From Candidatus Heimdallarchaeota archaeon (GTDB lineage: Archaea; Asgardarchaeota; Heimdallarchaeia; Heimdallarchaeales; Kariarchaeaceae), in contig WAKA01000140.1 of assembly GCA_015523565.1 (NCBI GenBank), positions 1-34,789 on the forward strand: a stretch of DNA of 34,789 nucleotides. The letters are read 5' to 3'. Below the pieces are notes generated by a model that saw nothing but the letters and a program-made list of their open reading frames with translations, did not search any database and had not been told where the DNA came from. Both the position numbers and the translations under genes were made by a program. Positions 3,373 to 30,922 of the stretch are shown here, piece by piece. Position 1 is the stretch's first letter. Each line of letters opens with the position of its first letter.

Positions 3373-5502
3373 ATGGAAGATTATGACGAGTCAGACATTC
3401 AAGTGTTGGAAGGCACTGAAGGTGTTAGACACAGGCCCTCTATGTATATTGGTGATGTAGGCTCTAGAGGTCTTCACCATCTTGTCTATGAGGTAATAGA
3501 CAACAGTGTTGACGAGGCTATGGCGGGAAGGTGCTCAAAAGCAATTGTTACCATTCACAAGGATGGTTCTGTTTCAATTAGGGATGATGGTGCAGGGATT
3601 CCGTCGGATATTCATCCACAGTATGGCGTATCAACCTTGGAGGTTATCTTGACAAAATTGCATTCTGGCGGAAAATTTGGGAAGAAAGCATATTCCGTTT
3701 CTGGTGGTCTCCATGGGGTTGGGCTGTCTGTAGTATGTGCCTTAAGCATTGAATTCTATGTTGAGGTTGTTCGTGAAAAGAAAGTTTTTTGGCAGGAATA
3801 CTCAAGAGGTAAAAAAAAGTATGATGTTAAATCCAGACCGAGGGGTCCAGAAGATCAGCGTGGTACTTTAATCAAATTCAAGCCTGATCCAGAAATCTTT
3901 AACACCACCGAGTTCAATTTTGACATTTTGGCAGGTCGGTTTAAGGAACTTGCATATCTGACAGAGGGATTCACGATTGAATTCACTGACGAAAGACAAA
4001 TCGAAACAGATGAGGATGGAAATGAAAAACCATTAACGGTTGTATTTCATTATGAAGGAGGAATTGTCCAGTTTGTGGAAGATACGATCAAGAACAGAAG
4101 AATGCTTGATGATGAAGCGCCAATCTTCCGAGCAACTGGTGAAAGCAATGGTGTCAAAGTTGATATTGCCTTGGCCTATACGGATTCCTTCCAAGAATTG
4201 ATTAAGGGATTTGTGAACAATATTGATACTCGTGAGGGAGGAACTCATGTTTCAGGTTTCAAAACTGCATTGACTAGAACACTCAATGACTTTGCAAGAA
4301 CAAATAAGATTTTGAGAGACAAGGATGAGAATTTAAGGGGAGACGATACAAGGGAGGGGCTTGTTGCAATAATTTCTGTCAAGGTTCCTGAACCACAATT
4401 TGAAGGTCAAACCAAGACAAAGCTGGGCAACAGTGAAGTGGACGGAATTGTTCAAGGGATATTCGGCAAGAGATTCAAGGAATTTCTCCAAACCCATCAA
4501 ACTTATGGACGCGCAATTGTCCAAAAAGCAATCCAGTCCAGAAGGGCAAGGCTTGCTGCACAAAAAGCAAGGGAATTGATTCGAAAAACCAGCTCAAGTA
4601 AGGTTTCCCTTCCTGGAAAACTATATGCTTCCAGAGAAAAAGACCCGATGAAACGTGAATTGTTCCTCGTTGAAGGACAATCTGCCGGTGGTACTGCCGT
4701 CAAGGCAAGAGATGCCCAGAACCAGGAAATTCTGTTCTTGCGGGGGAAAGTCCTGAATGTTGAGAAGGCACGTCTAAGTCGTATCTTGGATAATGCAGAA
4801 ATTAGAAACATCATAACTGCTGTTGGAACTGGAATTGATGACGACTTTGACATTTCAAAGCTCAGATACGGAAAAATAGTTATTCTTACTGACGCAGATG
4901 TTGACGGGCTCCATATAGCCACTCTGCTTCTGACGCTTTTCTACAGGCATATGCGACCACTGCTTGAAGAAGGACATATTTATATGGCAAGACCCCCGCT
5001 TTTCAAGGTCTCGTTCAATACAAAATCAATAAAGTTGACTGGAAAGCCTTATGTTTATTTGACATCTGACAGGGATCTTGAGGCCTTGAAAATTGCCCTT
5101 GAAGACATGGGACTTTCTACCAACGACATTGTTGTCAACAGGTTCAAGGGTCTTGGTGAAATGAATGCAGACCAGCTTGAAGAAACAGTCATGAATCCAT
5201 TGACCCGGCGCATCGAAAGAATTATAATTGCAGACAGCGCAGAAACGGAAACATGGATTACAAAACTCATGGGTGACGATATCCAAGGAAGAAAGAAGTT
5301 CATCAATGAAGAGGTCTTTTCAGAGGAAAGCCATCATCATTTTGGTGAATTCTATTCTTTGGCTTTTGATGAGGAAAATGAAGAAGATGAGGAAATCGAA
5401 ATTTACGAAGGTGACTTTGAAAATGAGATGCAGGATGAAAGCATCTTAGCCGCCGATCTCTTGTCACAACTAGAGGACTGGACCCATGAACCACAATTTT
5501 AG
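3373..5502 (+). CDS. gyrB: DNA gyrase subunit B (type IIA topoisomerase) with acidic C-terminal extension
   Basis: VRHRPSMYIG, EVIDNSVDE, DDGAGIP, LHSGGKF, GGLHGVG, PQFEGQTK, TOPRIM EGQSAGG and TDADVDG, RFKGLGEMN; directly upstream of gyrA. Confidence 0.95.
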   Translation: MEDYDESDIQVLEGTEGVRHRPSMYIGDVGSRGLHHLVYEVIDNSVDEAMAGRCSKAIVTIHKDGSVSIRDDGAGIPSDIHPQYGVSTLEVILTKLHSGGKFGKKAYSVSGGLHGVGLSVVCALSIEFYVEVVREKKVFWQEYSRGKKKYDVKSRPRGPEDQRGTLIKFKPDPEIFNTTEFNFDILAGRFKELAYLTEGFTIEFTDERQIETDEDGNEKPLTVVFHYEGGIVQFVEDTIKNRRMLDDEAPIFRATGESNGVKVDIALAYTDSFQELIKGFVNNIDTREGGTHVSGFKTALTRTLNDFARTNKILRDKDENLRGDDTREGLVAIISVKVPEPQFEGQTKTKLGNSEVDGIVQGIFGKRFKEFLQTHQTYGRAIVQKAIQSRRARLAAQKARELIRKTSSSKVSLPGKLYASREKDPMKRELFLVEGQSAGGTAVKARDAQNQEILFLRGKVLNVEKARLSRILDNAEIRNIITAVGTGIDDDFDISKLRYGKIVILTDADVDGLHIATLLLTLFYRHMRPLLEEGHIYMARPPLFKVSFNTKSIKLTGKPYVYLTSDRDLEALKIALEDMGLSTNDIVVNRFKGLGEMNADQLEETVMNPLTRRIERIIIADSAETETWITKLMGDDIQGRKKFINEEVFSEESHHHFGEFYSLAFDEENEEDEEIEIYEGDFENEMQDESILAADLLSQLEDWTHEPQF

Positions 5503-5506
5503 GTGA
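5501..5506 (+). promoter_or_regulatory. Shine-Dalgarno AGGTGA upstream of gyrA
   Basis: AGGTGA overlaps the gyrB stop and ends 6 nt before the ATG at 5513. Confidence 0.7.
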
Positions 5507-5512
5507 AACGTT

Positions 5513-8182
5513 ATGTCAACAACTGAAGATTTTATCAGAGAAAGCACACTTACAACAGAACTGAAATATGGTTTTGGAGAGTATTCCCGCTATGTCATTT
5601 CAGATCGAGCCCTCCCTGATGCCAGAGACGGACTTAAACCTGTCCACCGAAGAATAATATATGCAATGCATGGTCTTGGTCTTACACATAGGTCCAACTT
5701 CAAGAAATGTGCAAGAATTGTTGGTGAAGTCACTGGAAAGTACCATCCACATGCAGGAGGGACATATGAAAGCCTTGTCCGATTGGCACAGGACTGGTCA
5801 CTTCGATATCCACTTGTTGAAGGACAGGGAAACTTTGGAAGCATTGATGGTTTTCCCCCTGCAGCCATGCGTTATACTGAGGCAAGGCTTGCCAAGATCT
5901 CCCAGGAATTGTTGGCTGACCTTTCCCCAAAGGTGGTTCAATTTGTCGAAAACTTTGATGGAGAGGAAATGGAACCAACAGTCTTACCTGTCCGAGTCCC
6001 CCATCTGTTGTTGAACGGTGCCAAGGGAATCGCTGTGGGAATGTCCTCCAATATTCCTCCCCATCAACTGGGTGAACTTATAGATGGTGCCATTGCAATA
6101 ATTGACAATCCAAGAATCACAATAGAAGAACTGATGGAGCATGTAAAAGGTCCTGATTTTCCAACAGGTGGATTGATTGTTGGTACTAAAGGAATAGAGG
6201 CACTTTACCGAACTGGAAAGGGAAGCCTAAGAGTAAGATCACGCATTCATGTTGAACGCCCTGATACCCATAAGGTAAAGGAGCCCATGCTTGTTGTTGA
6301 TGAAATCCCCTATTTCGTGAATAAAACCTCCCTGATTGAAGAAATTGCTGAATTGATCAATGAAAACAAGATAAGGGGCGTAACTAATATCCGTGACCTT
6401 TCAAAAGACAAGATAAGAATTGAAATTGTTGTTGAAGAAGGATATTCAGACGATGAATCACTGAGAACTGTCCAAGCCCAGCTTTTCAACAGGACATCAC
6501 TTGAAAATTATTTCCATGCCCGTATCTTGGCTTTTGTCTATGGAAAACCAAGAACCCTCAACCTAAAACAGGCTCTCTCAATTTTCCTCGACTTCAGAGA
6601 GGATGTCATCCTGAAACGCTCTGAGGAAGAACTTGAAAAAGTCATGGCACGTTTGCATATCCTTGAAGGATTAATCAAGGCATCACAACATATTGATGCA
6701 ATCATTGCATTGATTCGCGCGTCGGAAACAAGAGCCGAAGCCCAAAAGAACTTGATGGAAACATATCAACTCTCCGATAAGCAAGCCAAAGCTGTTCTTG
6801 ACATGACTCTGGCAAGATTGGCAAGAGTTGAACAGAATGATCTTGTACAAGAAGCAGAAAAAAGAAGAGAAAGGGCTTCTTTCTTGCTGGAAATCATCAA
6901 CAACAGGTCAAGAAGATTGGAAGTCATTAAAGAGGAACTCTTGGACATCAAAAACAAGTACAATGACAAAAGAAGAACGACAATCCTTGAATATGATGAA
7001 ATTGGCATGAAAGGGGATCGCGCACTCCTGCATGAAAGAAAACTTCTCATTACCTCGACAAGCGAAGGATATGTCAGGTCAATTGATTTTGAAAAATTCA
7101 AGATTCAAGGAAGGGCAGGAGTTGGTGTGATTGGTCTTCCCCTGAACCCTGATGAAAGATTGCTTGACTTTACCATTGCAAGCAACAAGGATGACCTCCT
7201 TCTAATCACTGAGGAAGGGATCATCCATAAGATCCCCGCATTTGAAGTCATAGAGGTAAATAAAAGAACCCACAAGGGAAGAAAATTGAACACATACCTC
7301 CCTGTCAACTCACTCGTCAAAAAAATCGTTCCAGTCCCTGAAAATGAATTTACCAAAGATAAAATCCTTGTGACAGTGACCAAAAATGGCATAGTCAAAA
7401 GAACTACCCTTGACAAATTCAAAAATATCAGAAAAACAGGAATCAAATGCCTCTTGTTTAAGGATGAAAATGATGCTGTTGTTGATGCATTCATTACAGA
7501 TGGTGATTCCTTAATTTTCATGGCTTCAAAGTTTGGAAGTGCATCCATCTTCGAAGAAAAGAAAGCAAGGTTGACTGGTCGGGTGGCACAAGGTGTTATC
7601 GGTATGAAATTCAGGTCCCCTGACGATGAAATAATATCATCATTTGCGGTGCCAAAAGAAAAGTATGAGACAGATGCTGTACTAACATTGACTGAAAAGG
7701 GATATGGAAAACGGACATTGCTGTCGAAATATAGAATAACAAACAGGGCCGCTAAAGGTGTGAAGAATATCAAAATAACAGACAAAAACGGGTATGTAAC
7801 CAGTTCCATTTTCGTTCCTGCTGATGATCGGCAAATCCCACTATCCTTGATCAGTAATTCTGGAAAAATAATCAAGGTTCTATTGAACACAATCCGACTG
7901 ATGGGAAGAAGTACACAAGGCGTAAGGGTCATGAGACTTTCTAAAAATGAAAAATTGGTCTTTGCATCCCTCATTGTTGACGATTCCCAAATTGAGGAAA
8001 TTGAAATTCCCCAAGAAAATGAGGATTATGATGATCTTGATGAAATGGAAGATAATGATGAAATCACCACTGAAATAATCCCTGACGAAAACAATGGAAA
8101 TGAAACTTATGAAGACGAAAACAGTGAAGACGCTACAGCAGACGCCCTAAGTGAATTGGATCAATTGGATTTTGATACATGA
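5513..8182 (+). CDS. gyrA: DNA gyrase subunit A
   Basis: [23 protein letters not shown], catalytic AAMRYTE, beta-pinwheel CTD repeats, GyrA-box-like QGRAGVG (7106-7126) and an acidic tail. Confidence 0.95.
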
Positions 8183-13104: not shown

Positions 13105-15339
13105 GTGACTTCCATATTCCAAGTTTTGAAAGACTATTCCCAATATTTTGAAACAGACTACATCCCAGATTATGACTTTCTTAAATTATCAAACACCCAT
13201 AGAAAGTTTGATGCATTGATGCGGAGATTCTGGGATTCTTTCCATCCATTGACAAGGGACATTTTTCTCAGTTTCATCTACGAGGTATCCAGACTATTGA
13301 ATACTGTTGAAGAACTGAATAAGGAAGTCTCAATCAAAGAAAGGGAAGTCCAGAAAATCAGTAAAGAACTAAACGAAAGAAGGGAATATATTGCCAGTTT
13401 GCTTGAAAAACTTGAACAAGAAGTTACAACCCAATTGTCATTGACGGAAGAAGAAATTAGAGCATTGGAAGAGGAATCAAAAGCAAAGTCCGAATTGGTT
13501 GAGAAGTTGCAACAGGAAATAATGACATTGAAAAGTGAACTTAATTCACAATCCACCCTTTCTTCAGATGCCGTAACTGAAGCTGTCCTGATGGATCAAA
13601 AAATCAACAAAATGGAAGCGGAAATAAAAGAACAACAGGAAGTAATTGAAAAACTGACTTTCGATAATCTTCAACTTATGGAACAAAACCTTTCGCTTCA
13701 AAAAGACAATGAAGCCTTGGTTAAACAAGTTAATGAACTTGAAAATAAACTTACCCAATTGACTACTGCAAATGAAATGCTGCAAAAAGAATTATCCCAG
13801 AAAGAACAGGCGATAAATTCCCTCAACAAGAAAGTCATCGAGATGAAAGCTGGTGAATTTTCTGGAACTTCTGAAGAAGAAACCTCTGACAGTTTTGATT
13901 CCTTTATTGGAAGCGATGTAAAGGAATTAAAGAAAGATATGATGGCATTGACAAAAATAATTTCTGAAGAATTCTCTCAACCCATGGAGCACCCTGTTGA
14001 CGCATCTAAAATGGACGAACTCAGTAAAATCATGAACTTCAAATCTAAATTGATTGACTTTTATGAGAACATTAAATCAAAAGACCCTACCCTTGATTTA
14101 TTCCTTTTGAATGAAGAAATTGAAGAAATGGCAAAAGAAGACCCTTATGGTGTCTTAAATGTAATCGAAAAAATCATTTCCGTATTCCTTACACTCATGA
14201 TGGATACAAAATTGGAAGAGATCAAAAGAGAATTCCTGATTGAAAAAATACAACTGCAATCCGAAATTGTACAATTGAGAAATAAAATAATCGAATTGAC
14301 CGATTCCTTGGAAGAACCTCTGAAAATAAAGAAAGAAGTAGATGAAATGTTTGAAACATCCCGTGGGTCTCTAAAGGAAAAAGAAATGGGAAAAGTACAG
14401 GTGGATGAGGAATCCAAAGATCATTTGGGCAATAAAATCCAAGAGGATGATAAAGACAAGTTGGACACCATAACAGATAAATTGGACGCCATAACACAAG
14501 ATGATGAAATTATTGTTGCCAAAACTAATGAAAACGATTTCAGAAGACAACCCATGTCTCAACCCCTTGATGAAGAACAAAATGACTTCATGATACATCA
14601 TGAATATGCTGAGAATAAAGAAGAGGTTGAAAATGATGGATTGCAACCAGAGGAACGTAAAACTGAAAATAAACAGCACTTCTCATCTAATTTTCTCTTA
14701 TCGAAACTGAAAAAACATTTAGAGGAGGAAACTCATTCTACAATAGCTTCGTCAGAGCATGAAATAAATGATCTGGATTCAAAAACATTACCTCAAGAGC
14801 CAATTGACGAAATGCCGATCAATAATGATGCAAACTTTGATGCTGTTGCTATGGACAAAGAACTTGGGATGGACGACAATGAAATTGACGATATAACTTT
14901 TGATGGAATGCTTGTTGATGAAGAACCGATTGATGAACCAAATAATCTTAGTTCTCAAGTGAATATTGAAGAAAGTGAATCCAGTCAATTTGATACCAAT
15001 GACCAAAAAGAGTTATCAATCAATGAAACAGTTGTGGCTGATGAAACAGGTTCCGAAAAAAAAGACCACCAAGACGCATTTTTACCAGTGCCACCTTTGA
15101 AGGACAGTCTTTTGGAATTTGTCTCAAAAGTAAAAACAGAAAAGACATCAAACAAACCAACACTGGATCACTCAGATCATGACTTGGAAACATCATTTCC
15201 AGAAAAAAAAGAAGAATTAAATACGGACTCTTTTCTCCAAAATGAAGAGACACAAAATGACAAGGTCAATTCATTGCTAAACAAATTCCAGAAAAAACTC
15301 ACTTCTTCAAAGAAATCATGGCTTGATGATGATCAATAA
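13105..15339 (+). CDS. Large hypothetical protein: N-terminal helical/coiled-coil region plus long acidic disordered C-terminal region
   Basis: 744-aa ORF; heptad-rich at about aa 60-250 and 370-410; D/E/N/S-rich low-complexity C-terminal third. Confidence 0.8.
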   Translation: MTSIFQVLKDYSQYFETDYIPDYDFLKLSNTHRKFDALMRRFWDSFHPLTRDIFLSFIYEVSRLLNTVEELNKEVSIKEREVQKISKELNERREYIASLLEKLEQEVTTQLSLTEEEIRALEEESKAKSELVEKLQQEIMTLKSELNSQSTLSSDAVTEAVLMDQKINKMEAEIKEQQEVIEKLTFDNLQLMEQNLSLQKDNEALVKQVNELENKLTQLTTANEMLQKELSQKEQAINSLNKKVIEMKAGEFSGTSEEETSDSFDSFIGSDVKELKKDMMALTKIISEEFSQPMEHPVDASKMDELSKIMNFKSKLIDFYENIKSKDPTLDLFLLNEEIEEMAKEDPYGVLNVIEKIISVFLTLMMDTKLEEIKREFLIEKIQLQSEIVQLRNKIIELTDSLEEPLKIKKEVDEMFETSRGSLKEKEMGKVQVDEESKDHLGNKIQEDDKDKLDTITDKLDAITQDDEIIVAKTNENDFRRQPMSQPLDEEQNDFMIHHEYAENKEEVENDGLQPEERKTENKQHFSSNFLLSKLKKHLEEETHSTIASSEHEINDLDSKTLPQEPIDEMPINNDANFDAVAMDKELGMDDNEIDDITFDGMLVDEEPIDEPNNLSSQVNIEESESSQFDTNDQKELSINETVVADETGSEKKDHQDAFLPVPPLKDSLLEFVSKVKTEKTSNKPTLDHSDHDLETSFPEKKEELNTDSFLQNEETQNDKVNSLLNKFQKKLTSSKKSWLDDDQ
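14455..14496 (+). repeat. 21-bp in-frame tandem duplication (DKLDTIT / DKLDAIT)
   Basis: gacaagttggacaccataaca is followed directly by gataaattggacgccataaca (3 mismatches). Confidence 0.8.
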
Positions 15340-18890: not shown

Positions 18891-18941
18891 ACCTTGTTAT
18901 TCATCATTAAATTGGAACAGGCATTCCCACAATGTAAATTT

Positions 18942-19058
18942 GACCCGATGGTGTAATGGTAACATTGGGGATTGTGGCAGTTCGCTGCAAATCTCCCTAG
19001 CTGTGGGTTCGATAATCACATAGTTGTGTGCTTGTGGTCGAAAGTCCCACTCGGGTCA
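18942..19058 (+). tRNA. tRNA-His(GUG) with two introns (18978-18992 at 37/38; 19014-19044 at 59/60); CCA not encoded
   Basis: Acceptor GACCCGA/TCGGGTC, D arm GTGT-AATGGTA-ACAT, anticodon stem GGGGA/TCCCT with spliced loop TTGTGGC (anticodon 18974-18976), T stem GTGGG/CCCAC with spliced loop TTCGATT, discriminator A19058. Both introns fold into hBHBh' motifs. Confidence 0.92.
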
Positions 19059-19069
19059 TTGCCTGTTCC

Positions 19070-19077
19070 TTTTTTTT
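19070..19077 (+). terminator. Oligo-T archaeal terminator after the tRNA
   Basis: T8 run starting 12 nt after the discriminator base. Confidence 0.65.
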
Positions 19078-27377: not shown

Positions 27378-28259
27378 ATGTCTACCACAATAAAGGCAAG
27401 GCGGAAAATTGATGAGCTGATAAAAAAAGTTCGCGCTTTTTACATAATTAATGAAACAGGGCTACTTGAGCATTATGAACATTTTGTTGATACCGATGAG
27501 GATCCTGACCTCCATAGTGCCATGTTTGCAACTGTCCATATGTATGCCAAACAACTTGGTGGTGGCGAAATTGAACTTATCTCCTTGGAAAATCACAAGT
27601 TTGCATTCAGTACCTATGAAGGAAAACTCGTTGTACTTAATGTTGACGTGGATATGGACCCAAGCGATAGCTTATGGCTAATTGAACAAATCATGGATCG
27701 CTTTGAAAGCATTGAAAGGCTTAGACAAAAAAATCCAGAAGGGCGGCTTCTCTTCAAATCCCTCTTTGAAGAGCTTGGGAAATCAATTGACTGGGAAACC
27801 ATCAAGTCAATCAGGGAAAGTGCAATCCTTGAGGATTTAAAGTCCAAGGACATTGTTGAAACCACTAATCTGACCAAAATCAATGTCAAGTCAAAAGTAT
27901 GGATCAAAATTCGCCAAATTATCTCCAAACTTGTTAAATCCCATACACAGCTTCTGGGATCATTATTCTTGCTCAAAAATAAAAACCATATCAATGTACT
28001 CTTCAGTGGAAGGGCTGAAGTCAACGATTTTCGTGACATTTTGGACAAATCCCTATCCGAATTGTCTGATCCCTTTGCAAATTTAGAACAGGAAGTCAAA
28101 ATGGTACCAATAATGAATGGTTATGCCGCCATGTTCCCTGCTTTTTGTTATGGAGGAGCAATCCTAATTCTTCTGTCTTCTGACCTTTATGAACTTGAGC
28201 GCCTTACTGCACAAACGCAGAGAATAGTTTCCGCTTTGGAAAAAATAACCTCTTCCTAG
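27378..28259 (+). CDS. Longin-like domain protein with a second roadblock/longin-like C-terminal domain
   Basis: N-terminal VRAFYIINETGL ... DPDLHSAMFATVH.YA..L....IE.I.L...KF.F ... LIEQI..RF; the C-terminal half has a helix-strand-strand-helix-strand-strand-strand-helix pattern. Confidence 0.65.
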   Translation: MSTTIKARRKIDELIKKVRAFYIINETGLLEHYEHFVDTDEDPDLHSAMFATVHMYAKQLGGGEIELISLENHKFAFSTYEGKLVVLNVDVDMDPSDSLWLIEQIMDRFESIERLRQKNPEGRLLFKSLFEELGKSIDWETIKSIRESAILEDLKSKDIVETTNLTKINVKSKVWIKIRQIISKLVKSHTQLLGSLFLLKNKNHINVLFSGRAEVNDFRDILDKSLSELSDPFANLEQEVKMVPIMNGYAAMFPAFCYGGAILILLSSDLYELERLTAQTQRIVSALEKITSS

Positions 28260-28318: not shown

Positions 28319-30922
28319 ATGCAATCAAATTACACCTGCCCATATTGTTCCGGATTATTGGATTCCAGCAGACGTAGAGGTATTGTTACTTTCTATTGTG
28401 AATCCTGTGGATTTTCACACAAAGGAAAACCAGGATTTAATGAAGACGAGGTCTACCACCTGTTGTCAAACAAATTCCTTAGGCAAAAACAATCCCATCT
28501 TAAGGAAAATAAAGGATTCAAGGTCTCAACAAAAAAAAGGCAATCTGGCTGGACTAAGATTCGAAGCAGGAAATTGAAGAGAGATCCAATTATCGAACAA
28601 AATGCAAGAAATGCGATGGCAAAGATTCCTGAAAATGCACCAAGCTATTTGAAAAGAATTGCCGAAGACCAGTCATATTATTTTGTTGATTACAAATATC
28701 TTAAAGCCAATCCCCCCGAAACGGGAATGCCTGTTGAAAACACCATCATGTTCAATGGATTGCAATCAAAATTAAAAGAAAAAGGCATTTCTTCCCTGTA
28801 CAAATATCAAGAAGATGTGTATCATGCAATTGCTGAGGGGAATTCTGTAATCATTACTGCTCCAACGGGAATGGGAAAAACTGAAGCTTTCCTCATGCCA
28901 ATCCTTGAAAAAATTGTGTCTACAAATCCCAATCCATATGAAAGATCAGGACCCTATGCAATTTTCATTTATCCGACAAAAGCACTTGCAAAAGATCAAC
29001 TTATGAAAATTATAGAGTATTCCTCTGTTTTAGGGGTTACAGTCAAAAAATTTGACGGTGACACCACCAAGTCTGAACGGGACGAAATCTACCAATCTCC
29101 TCCTGACATTCTTCTGACCAATCCAGACATGATCCATTATCACCTTAGATCGAATTTCACTTTTCAGGCAATGGTTCGTAAGCTAAAATATTTAGTCATA
29201 GACGAAATCCATCTTTGCATCGGGTCTTATGGATCCAATGTGCTTTGGCTAATCCGAAGACTCAAAAGATTCAGCCCAAGCATCCAAATGATCGGCGCAA
29301 GTGCAACTGTCTCAAATGCAAAAGGTTTCGCAGAAACAATGTTTGAAACTGAAGTTAAGCATATTGGAATCTCTACAGCCCGAAAAGCGCCAATGCATCT
29401 TGCAATGGTTTACCCAAAAGAATCATCCAATCTTTCGACAATGTCAAGAATAATCCATTATTTAGTGGAGGCCAACAAAAAGACATTGGCTTTCGCAAAT
29501 AGTCATTTAACTGCTGAGGCTCTCAATCTTATCTTGAAAAACAATTCAATACTGTCTGAAGTGCATAGGGCGGGTCTTGAATATGCATACAGATCAAAAG
29601 TGGAAAATGCATTCAGGAAAGGACAACTTCAAGCTTTGGTTTCTACACCAACCTTGGAACTAGGGATTGATATTGGTGATTTGGACGCTGTTGTCACAAT
29701 GCTGACGGGATTGACCAATTTCATCCAAAGAATAGGTAGGGCTGGGAGAAGGGGTGATGAAAGCATTGCCGCTCTTGTGCTGAGAGGAGATGATCCAATC
29801 TCTGCTTTTTATGGTCGCCAACCCTCTGAATATCTAACTGAAATTGATCCTGTGTTTGTTGAACCCAACAATGATCTTGTTGGAACTATGCAATTACTTT
29901 CAATGGCTTTCGAACTGCCACTGACTGAGGAAGAATTGGATCAGTACTCGATTTTCTCCATACCACTGGTTGAAAAAGGAATACTTGTAAAATCAAATGG
30001 ACGATATCGGGTACGTGACAAACGAAAAGTGTCCAAAATTCTCCAAAACTTCTCTATAAGGGGCATAGGCGATTCCATTGATATCTTTTCAGGCTCAAAC
30101 AAAATTGGAAGCCGATCACTTCCAATGGCATTGAGTGAATTGCACCCAGGAGCAATTTATCTCCATGGTGGCAAAACTTATGAAGTTGTAGGATTTGACG
30201 GGGTGAAAAAATCCGCCACACTAAAAGCAACTGATAGAAAAGGGGAAAAAACACAGGCTGAAAGAACAATGTGGCCAACAATTATTGATGTCGAAAAAGA
30301 AATGAACTTCAACGGGATTTCTGCGGCATATCTGACTTTGGAATTGACAGAAACAGTTACTGGATATTATCGATCAAACATCTTTACAAATCGAATATTG
30401 GGACGATATCCTCTTGAAAAACCTCTACAGTATAAATTTAGGACCAAGGGTTTTGCGGTTCAATTTCCGCGTCCTGAAAAAATATTGGATGATACAATGG
30501 AAAATGAGGTAGATAACCTGCTCGGAGGAACTTTTCACGCTATCGAGCATGTCCTTATTGAATCTGGAAATTCTTTAACAGGGGGCGGTGCAACTCAAAT
30601 CGGCGGGCTTTCAATGGGTGACACCGGCTTGGTGTTTGTCTATGACGGTTCACCTGGTGGATCAGGTCTGTCAAAACTTTTGTTTGAAAGAATGGAAAAA
30701 GGAATCTTTAGAACCCTAAAAATATTGGAAGACTGTCCCTGCGGTCGAGTTGACGGGTGCCCTCGATGCACATATTCCTATCAATGTGGCAACAATAACC
30801 AACCATTGAATAGGATTGGTGCCATTGATTCGTTGAAACATTTTGGTAAAACATCCACTGAATTGGAATTTGATTTTGAAGGTGTGGAGACATTTATTGC
30901 AACCCCGGTTCATCCGTTTTGA
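28319..30922 (+). CDS. SF2 DEAD/DEAH-box helicase with DUF1998 Cys cluster (Hrq1/YprA/SftH family) and N-terminal zinc ribbon
   Basis: APTGMGKT, PTKALA.DQ, TNPDM, DEIH, SAT, TLELGIDIG, QRIGRAGRRG, HPGAIY, C-terminal CPC....GCPRC.....C; N-terminal CPYC...CESC. Confidence 0.92.
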   Translation: MQSNYTCPYCSGLLDSSRRRGIVTFYCESCGFSHKGKPGFNEDEVYHLLSNKFLRQKQSHLKENKGFKVSTKKRQSGWTKIRSRKLKRDPIIEQNARNAMAKIPENAPSYLKRIAEDQSYYFVDYKYLKANPPETGMPVENTIMFNGLQSKLKEKGISSLYKYQEDVYHAIAEGNSVIITAPTGMGKTEAFLMPILEKIVSTNPNPYERSGPYAIFIYPTKALAKDQLMKIIEYSSVLGVTVKKFDGDTTKSERDEIYQSPPDILLTNPDMIHYHLRSNFTFQAMVRKLKYLVIDEIHLCIGSYGSNVLWLIRRLKRFSPSIQMIGASATVSNAKGFAETMFETEVKHIGISTARKAPMHLAMVYPKESSNLSTMSRIIHYLVEANKKTLAFANSHLTAEALNLILKNNSILSEVHRAGLEYAYRSKVENAFRKGQLQALVSTPTLELGIDIGDLDAVVTMLTGLTNFIQRIGRAGRRGDESIAALVLRGDDPISAFYGRQPSEYLTEIDPVFVEPNNDLVGTMQLLSMAFELPLTEEELDQYSIFSIPLVEKGILVKSNGRYRVRDKRKVSKILQNFSIRGIGDSIDIFSGSNKIGSRSLPMALSELHPGAIYLHGGKTYEVVGFDGVKKSATLKATDRKGEKTQAERTMWPTIIDVEKEMNFNGISAAYLTLELTETVTGYYRSNIFTNRILGRYPLEKPLQYKFRTKGFAVQFPRPEKILDDTMENEVDNLLGGTFHAIEHVLIESGNSLTGGGATQIGGLSMGDTGLVFVYDGSPGGSGLSKLLFERMEKGIFRTLKILEDCPCGRVDGCPRCTYSYQCGNNNQPLNRIGAIDSLKHFGKTSTELEFDFEGVETFIATPVHPF

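Follow-up and report, generated by a model that had tools for sequence, protein, structure and literature searches.

An extra guanosine at the 5' end (G-1) marks tRNA-His in nearly all life. According to reviews, archaeal tRNA-His carries C73, and its G-1 comes either from the gene (G-1:C73) or from templated addition to the C73 tRNA by Thg1-like proteins (PMC3245924, PMC4338351); U-2 together with G-1 is the published signature of RNase P cutting at -1 (PMC3245924). The eukaryotic cytosolic tRNA has A73 and acquires an untemplated G-1 from Thg1 (PMC3245924). A G-1-less tRNA-His with a divergent HisRS was described in Caulobacter crescentus and related Alphaproteobacteria (PMC3064791, PMC4357726), and the G-1 pocket of the Caulobacter enzyme is blocked (PMC4357726). 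G-1-independent HisRS enzymes are also known from Trypanosoma brucei and Acanthamoeba castellanii (PMC4338351, PMC3561963).

We analyzed a tRNA-His(GUG) gene located at 18942–19058 of the window, that is, the whole 34,789-nucleotide stretch of Candidatus Heimdallarchaeota archaeon DNA presented above. The sequence-only reading of this stretch had reported A73 and a T at position -1, and our results confirmed both: the spliced sequence was exact, ARAGORN called it, and a second sample agreed. The gene shares with the canonical archaeal system the tRNA scaffold, the anticodon and BHB splicing, but it has neither C73 nor an encoded G-1, and Thg1 was not found in the genome; G-1:C73 or C73 with Thg1 accounts for 54 of the 98 Asgard genes that we typed. 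At the gene level, A73 without an encoded G-1 is also what the eukaryotic cytosolic system shows, from which this organism differs by a HisRS of separate lineage (in a fold alignment, identity is about 20%) and by the failure to find Thg1.

With Caulobacter, the likeness extends to a gene without G-1, A73, no Thg1 found, a G-1 pocket in HisRS that is altered here at its first glycine, and inserts in this enzyme. However, the present system is archaeal, with BHB introns, and has G1-C72 and a 7-nt D loop where Caulobacter has G1-U72 and an extra D-loop base, U20a. The pocket site is Asn-Gly here and Asp-Asp in Caulobacter, the large insert lies here in the insertion domain, and anticodon dependence, which was measured in Caulobacter, is what we infer here. 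As in the eukaryotes Trypanosoma and Acanthamoeba, the tRNA would carry no post-transcriptional G-1. Among solved structures, the trypanosome HisRS is one of the closest to the enzyme of this genome (198–200 bits) and is also without the motif-2 Arg115, but T. brucei has U73, and its HisRS keeps both pocket glycines and lacks the ~55-residue insert. We consider it likely that recognition of this tRNA-His is independent of G-1 and probably led by the anticodon, as in Caulobacter or Trypanosoma, and that the state is convergent with that of eukaryotes.

Anatomy of the tRNA-His gene

The features of the locus are listed in Table 1. Removal of the two introns leaves a 71-nt form that ARAGORN called as tRNA-His(GTG) and that folds into a cloverleaf with a GUG anticodon and intact stems. 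The acceptor end is G1-C72 with A73, G1 being position 18942, and TTG directly follows A73 (19058) on its 3' side; T18941 and A19058 stand where a canonical gene has G-1 and C73. On the raw window, the two introns hid the unspliced gene from both ARAGORN and Rfam. It was recovered unspliced, at 64.6 bits (E 9e-13), by a covariance model built from Asgard tRNA-His genes, from which this gene itself was excluded and in which close relatives were included. At the first intron, UUGU (positions 32–35) pairs with an intronic GCAA, and at the second, UUCG (positions 54–57) pairs with an intronic CGAA; both introns show the 4-bp central helix and 3-nt bulges of the archaeal BHB. The precursor fold was more stable than that of shuffled sequences (z = -3.6). 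In a sister species of the same genus (G001), the 59/60 intron site is occupied too, but by a different sequence.

Table 1. Features of the tRNA-His locus, in window coordinates
Feature	Position	Strand	Basis and remarks
Leader segment, 10 bp complementary to trailer 19060–19069	18914–18923	+	Sequence pairing; shuffles
Position -1 = T	18941	+	Most likely plain 5' leader, not a kept identity base; T/A/C/G across 43 A73 genes
tRNA-His(GUG) gene, positions 1–73, two introns, CCA not encoded	18942–19058	+	Sequence, ARAGORN on spliced form, covariance model, fold
Exon 1, positions 1–37; anticodon GTG = 18974–18976	18942–18977	+	ARAGORN on spliced form
Intron 1, 15 nt, canonical 37/38 site, strict BHB	18978–18992	+	Sequence, fold
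Exon 2, positions 38–59	18993–19013	+	ARAGORN on spliced form
Intron 2, 31 nt, T-loop 59/60 site, strict BHB	19014–19044	+	Sequence, fold
Exon 3, positions 60–73	19045–19058	+	ARAGORN on spliced form
Discriminator A73	19058	+	ARAGORN on spliced form; second sample
Trailer segment pairing with leader 18914–18923	19060–19069	+	Sequence pairing; shuffles
Stretch of eight T, probably an archaeal terminator	19070–19077	+	Inference from sequence

Around this two-intron precursor, the leader and trailer segments form a perfect 10-bp duplex, which was reached by 4 of 5000 shuffles; none of the 33 tRNAs compared in this genome has a longer one. In the sister species the duplex has 11 bp, with an A-U to G-C change, and it is absent in other family members. 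It may help precursor folding or order its processing.

The assembly, 90% complete in 233 contigs, leaves room for an error at the two critical bases, or for a canonical G-1:C73 gene in the 10% that it lacks and a silent copy here. However, contigs from the run that is probably the source (X1) were identical to the window at the locus, another sample from that study (X2) has the same bases at 18941 and 19058, and position 18941 was unchanged in a related strain from another study (X3); the stems and BHB motifs are intact. A second, canonical tRNA-His had been named as a check, and no second GUG tRNA was found in this 90%-complete assembly by ARAGORN, a loose pattern scan or the covariance model. 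Moreover, A73 is present in all 33 GUG tRNAs that were fully typed in families f1, f2 and f4. The closed genomes of Ca. Heimdallarchaeum aukensis and H. endolithica, which belong to the same order, each contain one tRNA-His match, T-1/A73, and Thg1 was not found in them. These closed genomes largely refute an artefact or a silent copy, which we hold to be exceedingly improbable, and the gene at 18942–19058 is likely the working tRNA-His of the organism.

The neighbouring genes encode a glycine cleavage H-like protein, CutA1, an MFS transporter and a sugar kinase, with no evident link to tRNA-His. Elsewhere in the window, DNA gyrase B and A genes lie side by side (3373–8182, +), and a 744-aa protein (13105–15339, +) gave a weak match to Mod_r (Vps37-like, ESCRT-I; E 6e-4, below the curated cut-off). 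A 293-aa ORF without a Pfam match (27378–28259, +) lies just upstream of a MrfA-type DEAD/DEAH helicase gene (28319–30922).

Positions -1 and 73 and the search for Thg1 across Asgard archaea

We typed 98 Asgard tRNA-His genes using search patterns that left positions -1 and 73 free; the counts include close kin and hence are not independent events. C73 was present in 54 genes, 53 of them with a genomic G-1 and 46 with U-2. A73 was present in 43, with T (28), A (12), C (2) or G (1) at position -1, and a single gene (G013, family f3, same order) has A-1/U73. A73 had been flagged as unusual in an archaeon. This stands for archaea as published, but A73 is common within several Asgard lineages. Our literature search, which left most subscription papers outside its reach, found no report of A73/G-1-less tRNA-His in Asgard or other archaea, and a 2026 preprint on Asgard tRNA introns makes no mention of the discriminator or of Thg1.

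In addition to f1, f2 and f4, A73 was found in f7 (Gerdarchaeota), f12 (a distant, Hermod-like family), f19, f21 and one f17 genome; Ca. Harpocratesius repetitus (G134) and its kin represent a second A73 lineage. Families f5 and f6 are probably Hodarchaeales, judging from class membership and from L28e, which marks Hodarchaeales and Njordarchaeales (PMC10307638); all 15 of their typed genes are G-1:C73. In f20 (135 genomes, Loki-type), three search patterns and the 17 model matches checked revealed no tRNA-His; the HisRS of this family falls in the same broad lineage as that of our genome. The UUGUGGC anticodon loop, which had been read as a eukaryote-type mark, is also carried by 15 intronless Asgard G-1:C73 genes and therefore is not diagnostic of the identity type.

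According to one alternative, RNase P cuts at -1 and leaves any base there (U in this gene, paired with A73), and HisRS reads only the 5' phosphate position. U-1 can indeed pair with A73, and U is the commonest -1 base among A73 genes (28/43), which counts against our preferred explanation; Aeropyrum HisRS accepts A-1 and C-1 (PMC9976931), and an RNase P RNA is present in the genome. However, G001, whose exons are identical to those of the gene studied here, has A-1, so the U-1:A73 pair suggested by the sequence-only reading is not maintained, and with U-1 absent in 15 of the 43 A73 genes, pairing is impossible there. The spread of -1 bases among A73 tRNA-His genes resembles that of the ordinary tRNAs of this genome (T14/A13/G3/C3), where U is no commoner than A. 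Moreover, 21 of 21 members of the HisRS subfamily described below have another residue in place of Arg115, the one that holds the G-1 phosphate in Thermus. Retention of the -1 base thus appears quite improbable to us.

The search for Thg1 (PF04446) gave no match in the order, for which 47 genomes including two closed ones were covered, nor in f7, f12, f17, f19 and f21; the same search matched 16 of 400 Asgard genomes. Further searches of four closed A73 genomes were negative too. In this genome, neither Thg1 nor Thg1C (PF14413) was matched (best E 0.5), and a local Asgard Thg1 profile and tblastn with Asgard Thg1 gave no true match; a search with a single Asgard Thg1 sequence was negative as well. 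The lone match of the local profile (E 0.005) was rejected after it was traced to a non-Thg1 ORF in the seed. Among Thg1-positive genomes with a typed tRNA-His, 9 of 9 have C73. The sole C73 gene without a genomic G-1 (G309, T-1/C73) comes from a genome in which Thg1 is present, in agreement with the templated route known from archaea, and provides an internal control; our genome has A73 instead of C73, and Thg1 was not found.

Addition of G-1 after transcription, as in eukaryotes, had been another proposal for this gene, and it would call for a Thg1 too divergent to be recognized or for an unrelated enzyme. Such addition would fit the eukaryotic gene pattern of A73 without genomic G-1 (PMC3245924), the 10% missing from the assembly and the Arg122 kept in the HisRS of this genome. 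The absence of Thg1 matches from the 47 genomes of the order and the closed A73 genomes argues against it, as does the HisRS, which is not of the eukaryotic type; moreover, archaeal Thg1 opposite A73 adds U, not G (PMC3245924). We judge G-1 addition to be quite improbable as well.

Three further observations were made on these tRNAs. Besides a T-1/A73 copy, genome G143 has another tRNA-His gene, which is G-1:C73, looks bacterial and lies on a contig of 1.7 kb (G143:C772, L290); it is probably a contamination. In G013, the tRNA-His (G013:C30:10847-10974, L252) is A-1/U73, as in Trypanosoma brucei, and lies ~6 kb from a highly divergent HisRS (L231) with a long pocket-loop insertion. The discriminator of tRNA-Ser is usually G73; several Ser tRNAs of our genome, at G000:C13:28109-28190 and elsewhere, have A73 at their 3' end.

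HisRS and the recognition of tRNA-His

The single HisRS of the genome (G000:C72:13038-14522, 494 aa) is encoded outside the window, on a different contig from the tRNA-His. In the Thermus complex (4RDX), Arg115 and Arg122 hold G-1, and the pocket is made by Gly72-Gly73 of the other subunit (PMC4357726). We compared 21 HisRS of the subfamily with 74 non-Asgard HisRS of the same lineage, an outgroup of mostly bacteria whose tRNA state is assumed. The first pocket site (Thermus G72) is Gly in 70/74 outgroup sequences versus 0/21 in the subfamily. Site R115 is Arg or Lys in 61/74 versus 0/21, with Thr in 20/21, and site R122 is Arg in 74/74 versus 9/21, with Lys in the other 12. Members of the subfamily further share an insert of ~55 residues and, in the anticodon-binding domain, an NPFxW motif. 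In the enzyme of our genome, the corresponding residues are Asn73, Gly74, Thr115 and Arg122: two Thermus G-1 contacts are lost (Gly72 and Arg115), and Arg122 and the second pocket glycine are kept. Its predicted model (pLDDT 92) has a helical insert, and the nearest solved folds are the Thermoplasma and trypanosome HisRS.

Altered pocket loops also occur in G-1:C73 genomes (f13/f24/f25, G126 and G129), and R115 is absent in 12/26 HisRS of such genomes, so neither change alone is diagnostic. In a post hoc comparison, neither a Gly/Ala pocket nor Arg115 was present in 24/24 partners of non-C73 tRNAs versus 1/26 partners of G-1:C73 tRNAs. Since these represent only 3 independent pairs on the tree, too few for significance, co-evolution of HisRS and tRNA is not statistically shown. 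The HisRS changes are suggestive, not diagnostic, of a loss of reliance on G-1. In f13, f24 and f25 (L193, L197-L199, L218), the pocket loop is a DPWS-type motif and the tRNA is still G-1:C73. The tRNA-His gene adjoins the HisRS gene in f7, f12, f13, f16 and f17 (L193, L197, L203, L212, L230, L232, L247), and joint transfer of the pair is therefore possible.

The remaining option of the sequence-only reading, a HisRS that ignores position -1, is the one favoured by the variable -1 and the remodelled HisRS, and we consider it likely. According to this explanation, both introns, whose BHB motifs were observed, would be spliced out, RNase P would cleave at +1 as for any other tRNA, and CCA would be added, giving a mature tRNA-His that begins at G1, with A73 unpaired and without a -1 base. 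The single HisRS, of a remodelled subfamily that would no longer rely on G-1, would most likely select its tRNA mainly through the GUG anticodon. Such anticodon-led recognition is suggested because the G1-C72/A73 end is common to many tRNAs of the genome and because Caulobacter solves the same problem via the anticodon (PMC3064791).

Phylogeny of HisRS and relation to eukaryotes

We built a quick HisRS tree with the trait columns removed, a midpoint root, and eukaryotic and Caulobacter HisRS left out. The subfamily (f1, f2, f4, f7 and f12) forms one clade (SH-aLRT 100) inside a larger group (97) that also holds bacterial HisRS and those of two Loki-type families; the enzymes of Hodarchaeales and of most other Asgard archaea fall elsewhere. 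Proteins labelled as Kariarchaeaceae and as Heimdallarchaeota LC_2 cluster with the enzyme of our genome, and by this kinship the host, a member of Heimdallarchaeia, belongs to Kariarchaeaceae. The G-1-less state would be common to Kariarchaeaceae, Heimdallarchaeaceae, Gerdarchaeota and the distant f12. In the second A73 set (f19, one f17 genome and f21), the HisRS form a different clade, whose pocket loop bears an insertion, and the state of the subfamily appears to have arisen apart from this lineage of Harpocratesius and its kin. With G013 as a third case, the losses of C73 on the HisRS tree number at least three.

By phmmer, the HisRS of our genome scored 225 bits with Thermoplasma, 200 with the trypanosome and 87 with the human enzyme; by this bit-score comparison (the tree contains no eukaryotic rows), it is not a cytosolic-type HisRS. 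One Hodarchaeales HisRS (G074, P0123, L219) scored 220 bits with human HisRS. The range for this protein was 220–232 bits with the human cytosolic and Elizabethkingia enzymes, and 151 bits with Thermoplasma. It is a candidate for the closest archaeal relative of the eukaryotic enzyme.

A bearing of this gene on the origin of the eukaryotic His identity system had been proposed. Eukaryotic A73 could have been inherited from a G-1-less ancestor within Heimdallarchaeia, a scenario compatible with the mechanism described above; the trait spans three families of the order plus Gerdarchaeota, and eukaryotes have been proposed to lie within this class or next to it (PMC10307638, PMC12222021). However, Hodarchaeales have G-1:C73 in all 15 genes typed, and it is one of their HisRS, rather than ours, that approaches the human sequence. 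A forced union of the subfamily with the Hodarchaeales enzymes was rejected (AU p 2e-5, for a group chosen after the tree was seen), and the loss of C73 is recurrent, also in Caulobacter. We find inheritance of A73 by eukaryotes very unlikely. That the A73, Thg1-less state of Heimdallarchaeia was the precursor of eukaryotic His identity, or that a non-Thg1 enzyme adds G-1 opposite A73, is, the two taken together, still unlikely. A eukaryote-like HisRS with a canonical tRNA in one lineage, and an A73 tRNA with a non-eukaryotic HisRS in the other, point to convergence; the A73 state studied here would have arisen independently of eukaryotic A73 rather than given rise to it, and the relevance to eukaryotic origins is weak.

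A73 in Asgard archaea is therefore alone no eukaryotic signature. Like its Caulobacter counterpart, the tRNA-His/HisRS pair could prove orthogonal in standard hosts, and the state is testable, since closed genomes of enriched organisms (Heimdallarchaeum and Harpocratesius) have it. G-1:C73, C73 with Thg1, A73 without either and one U73 make up a natural series for the switch from acceptor-end to anticodon recognition. Whole Asgard families with neither C73 nor G-1 would be the first archaeal exception known to us to a nearly universal identity rule, an exception that apparently arose more than once within one phylum.
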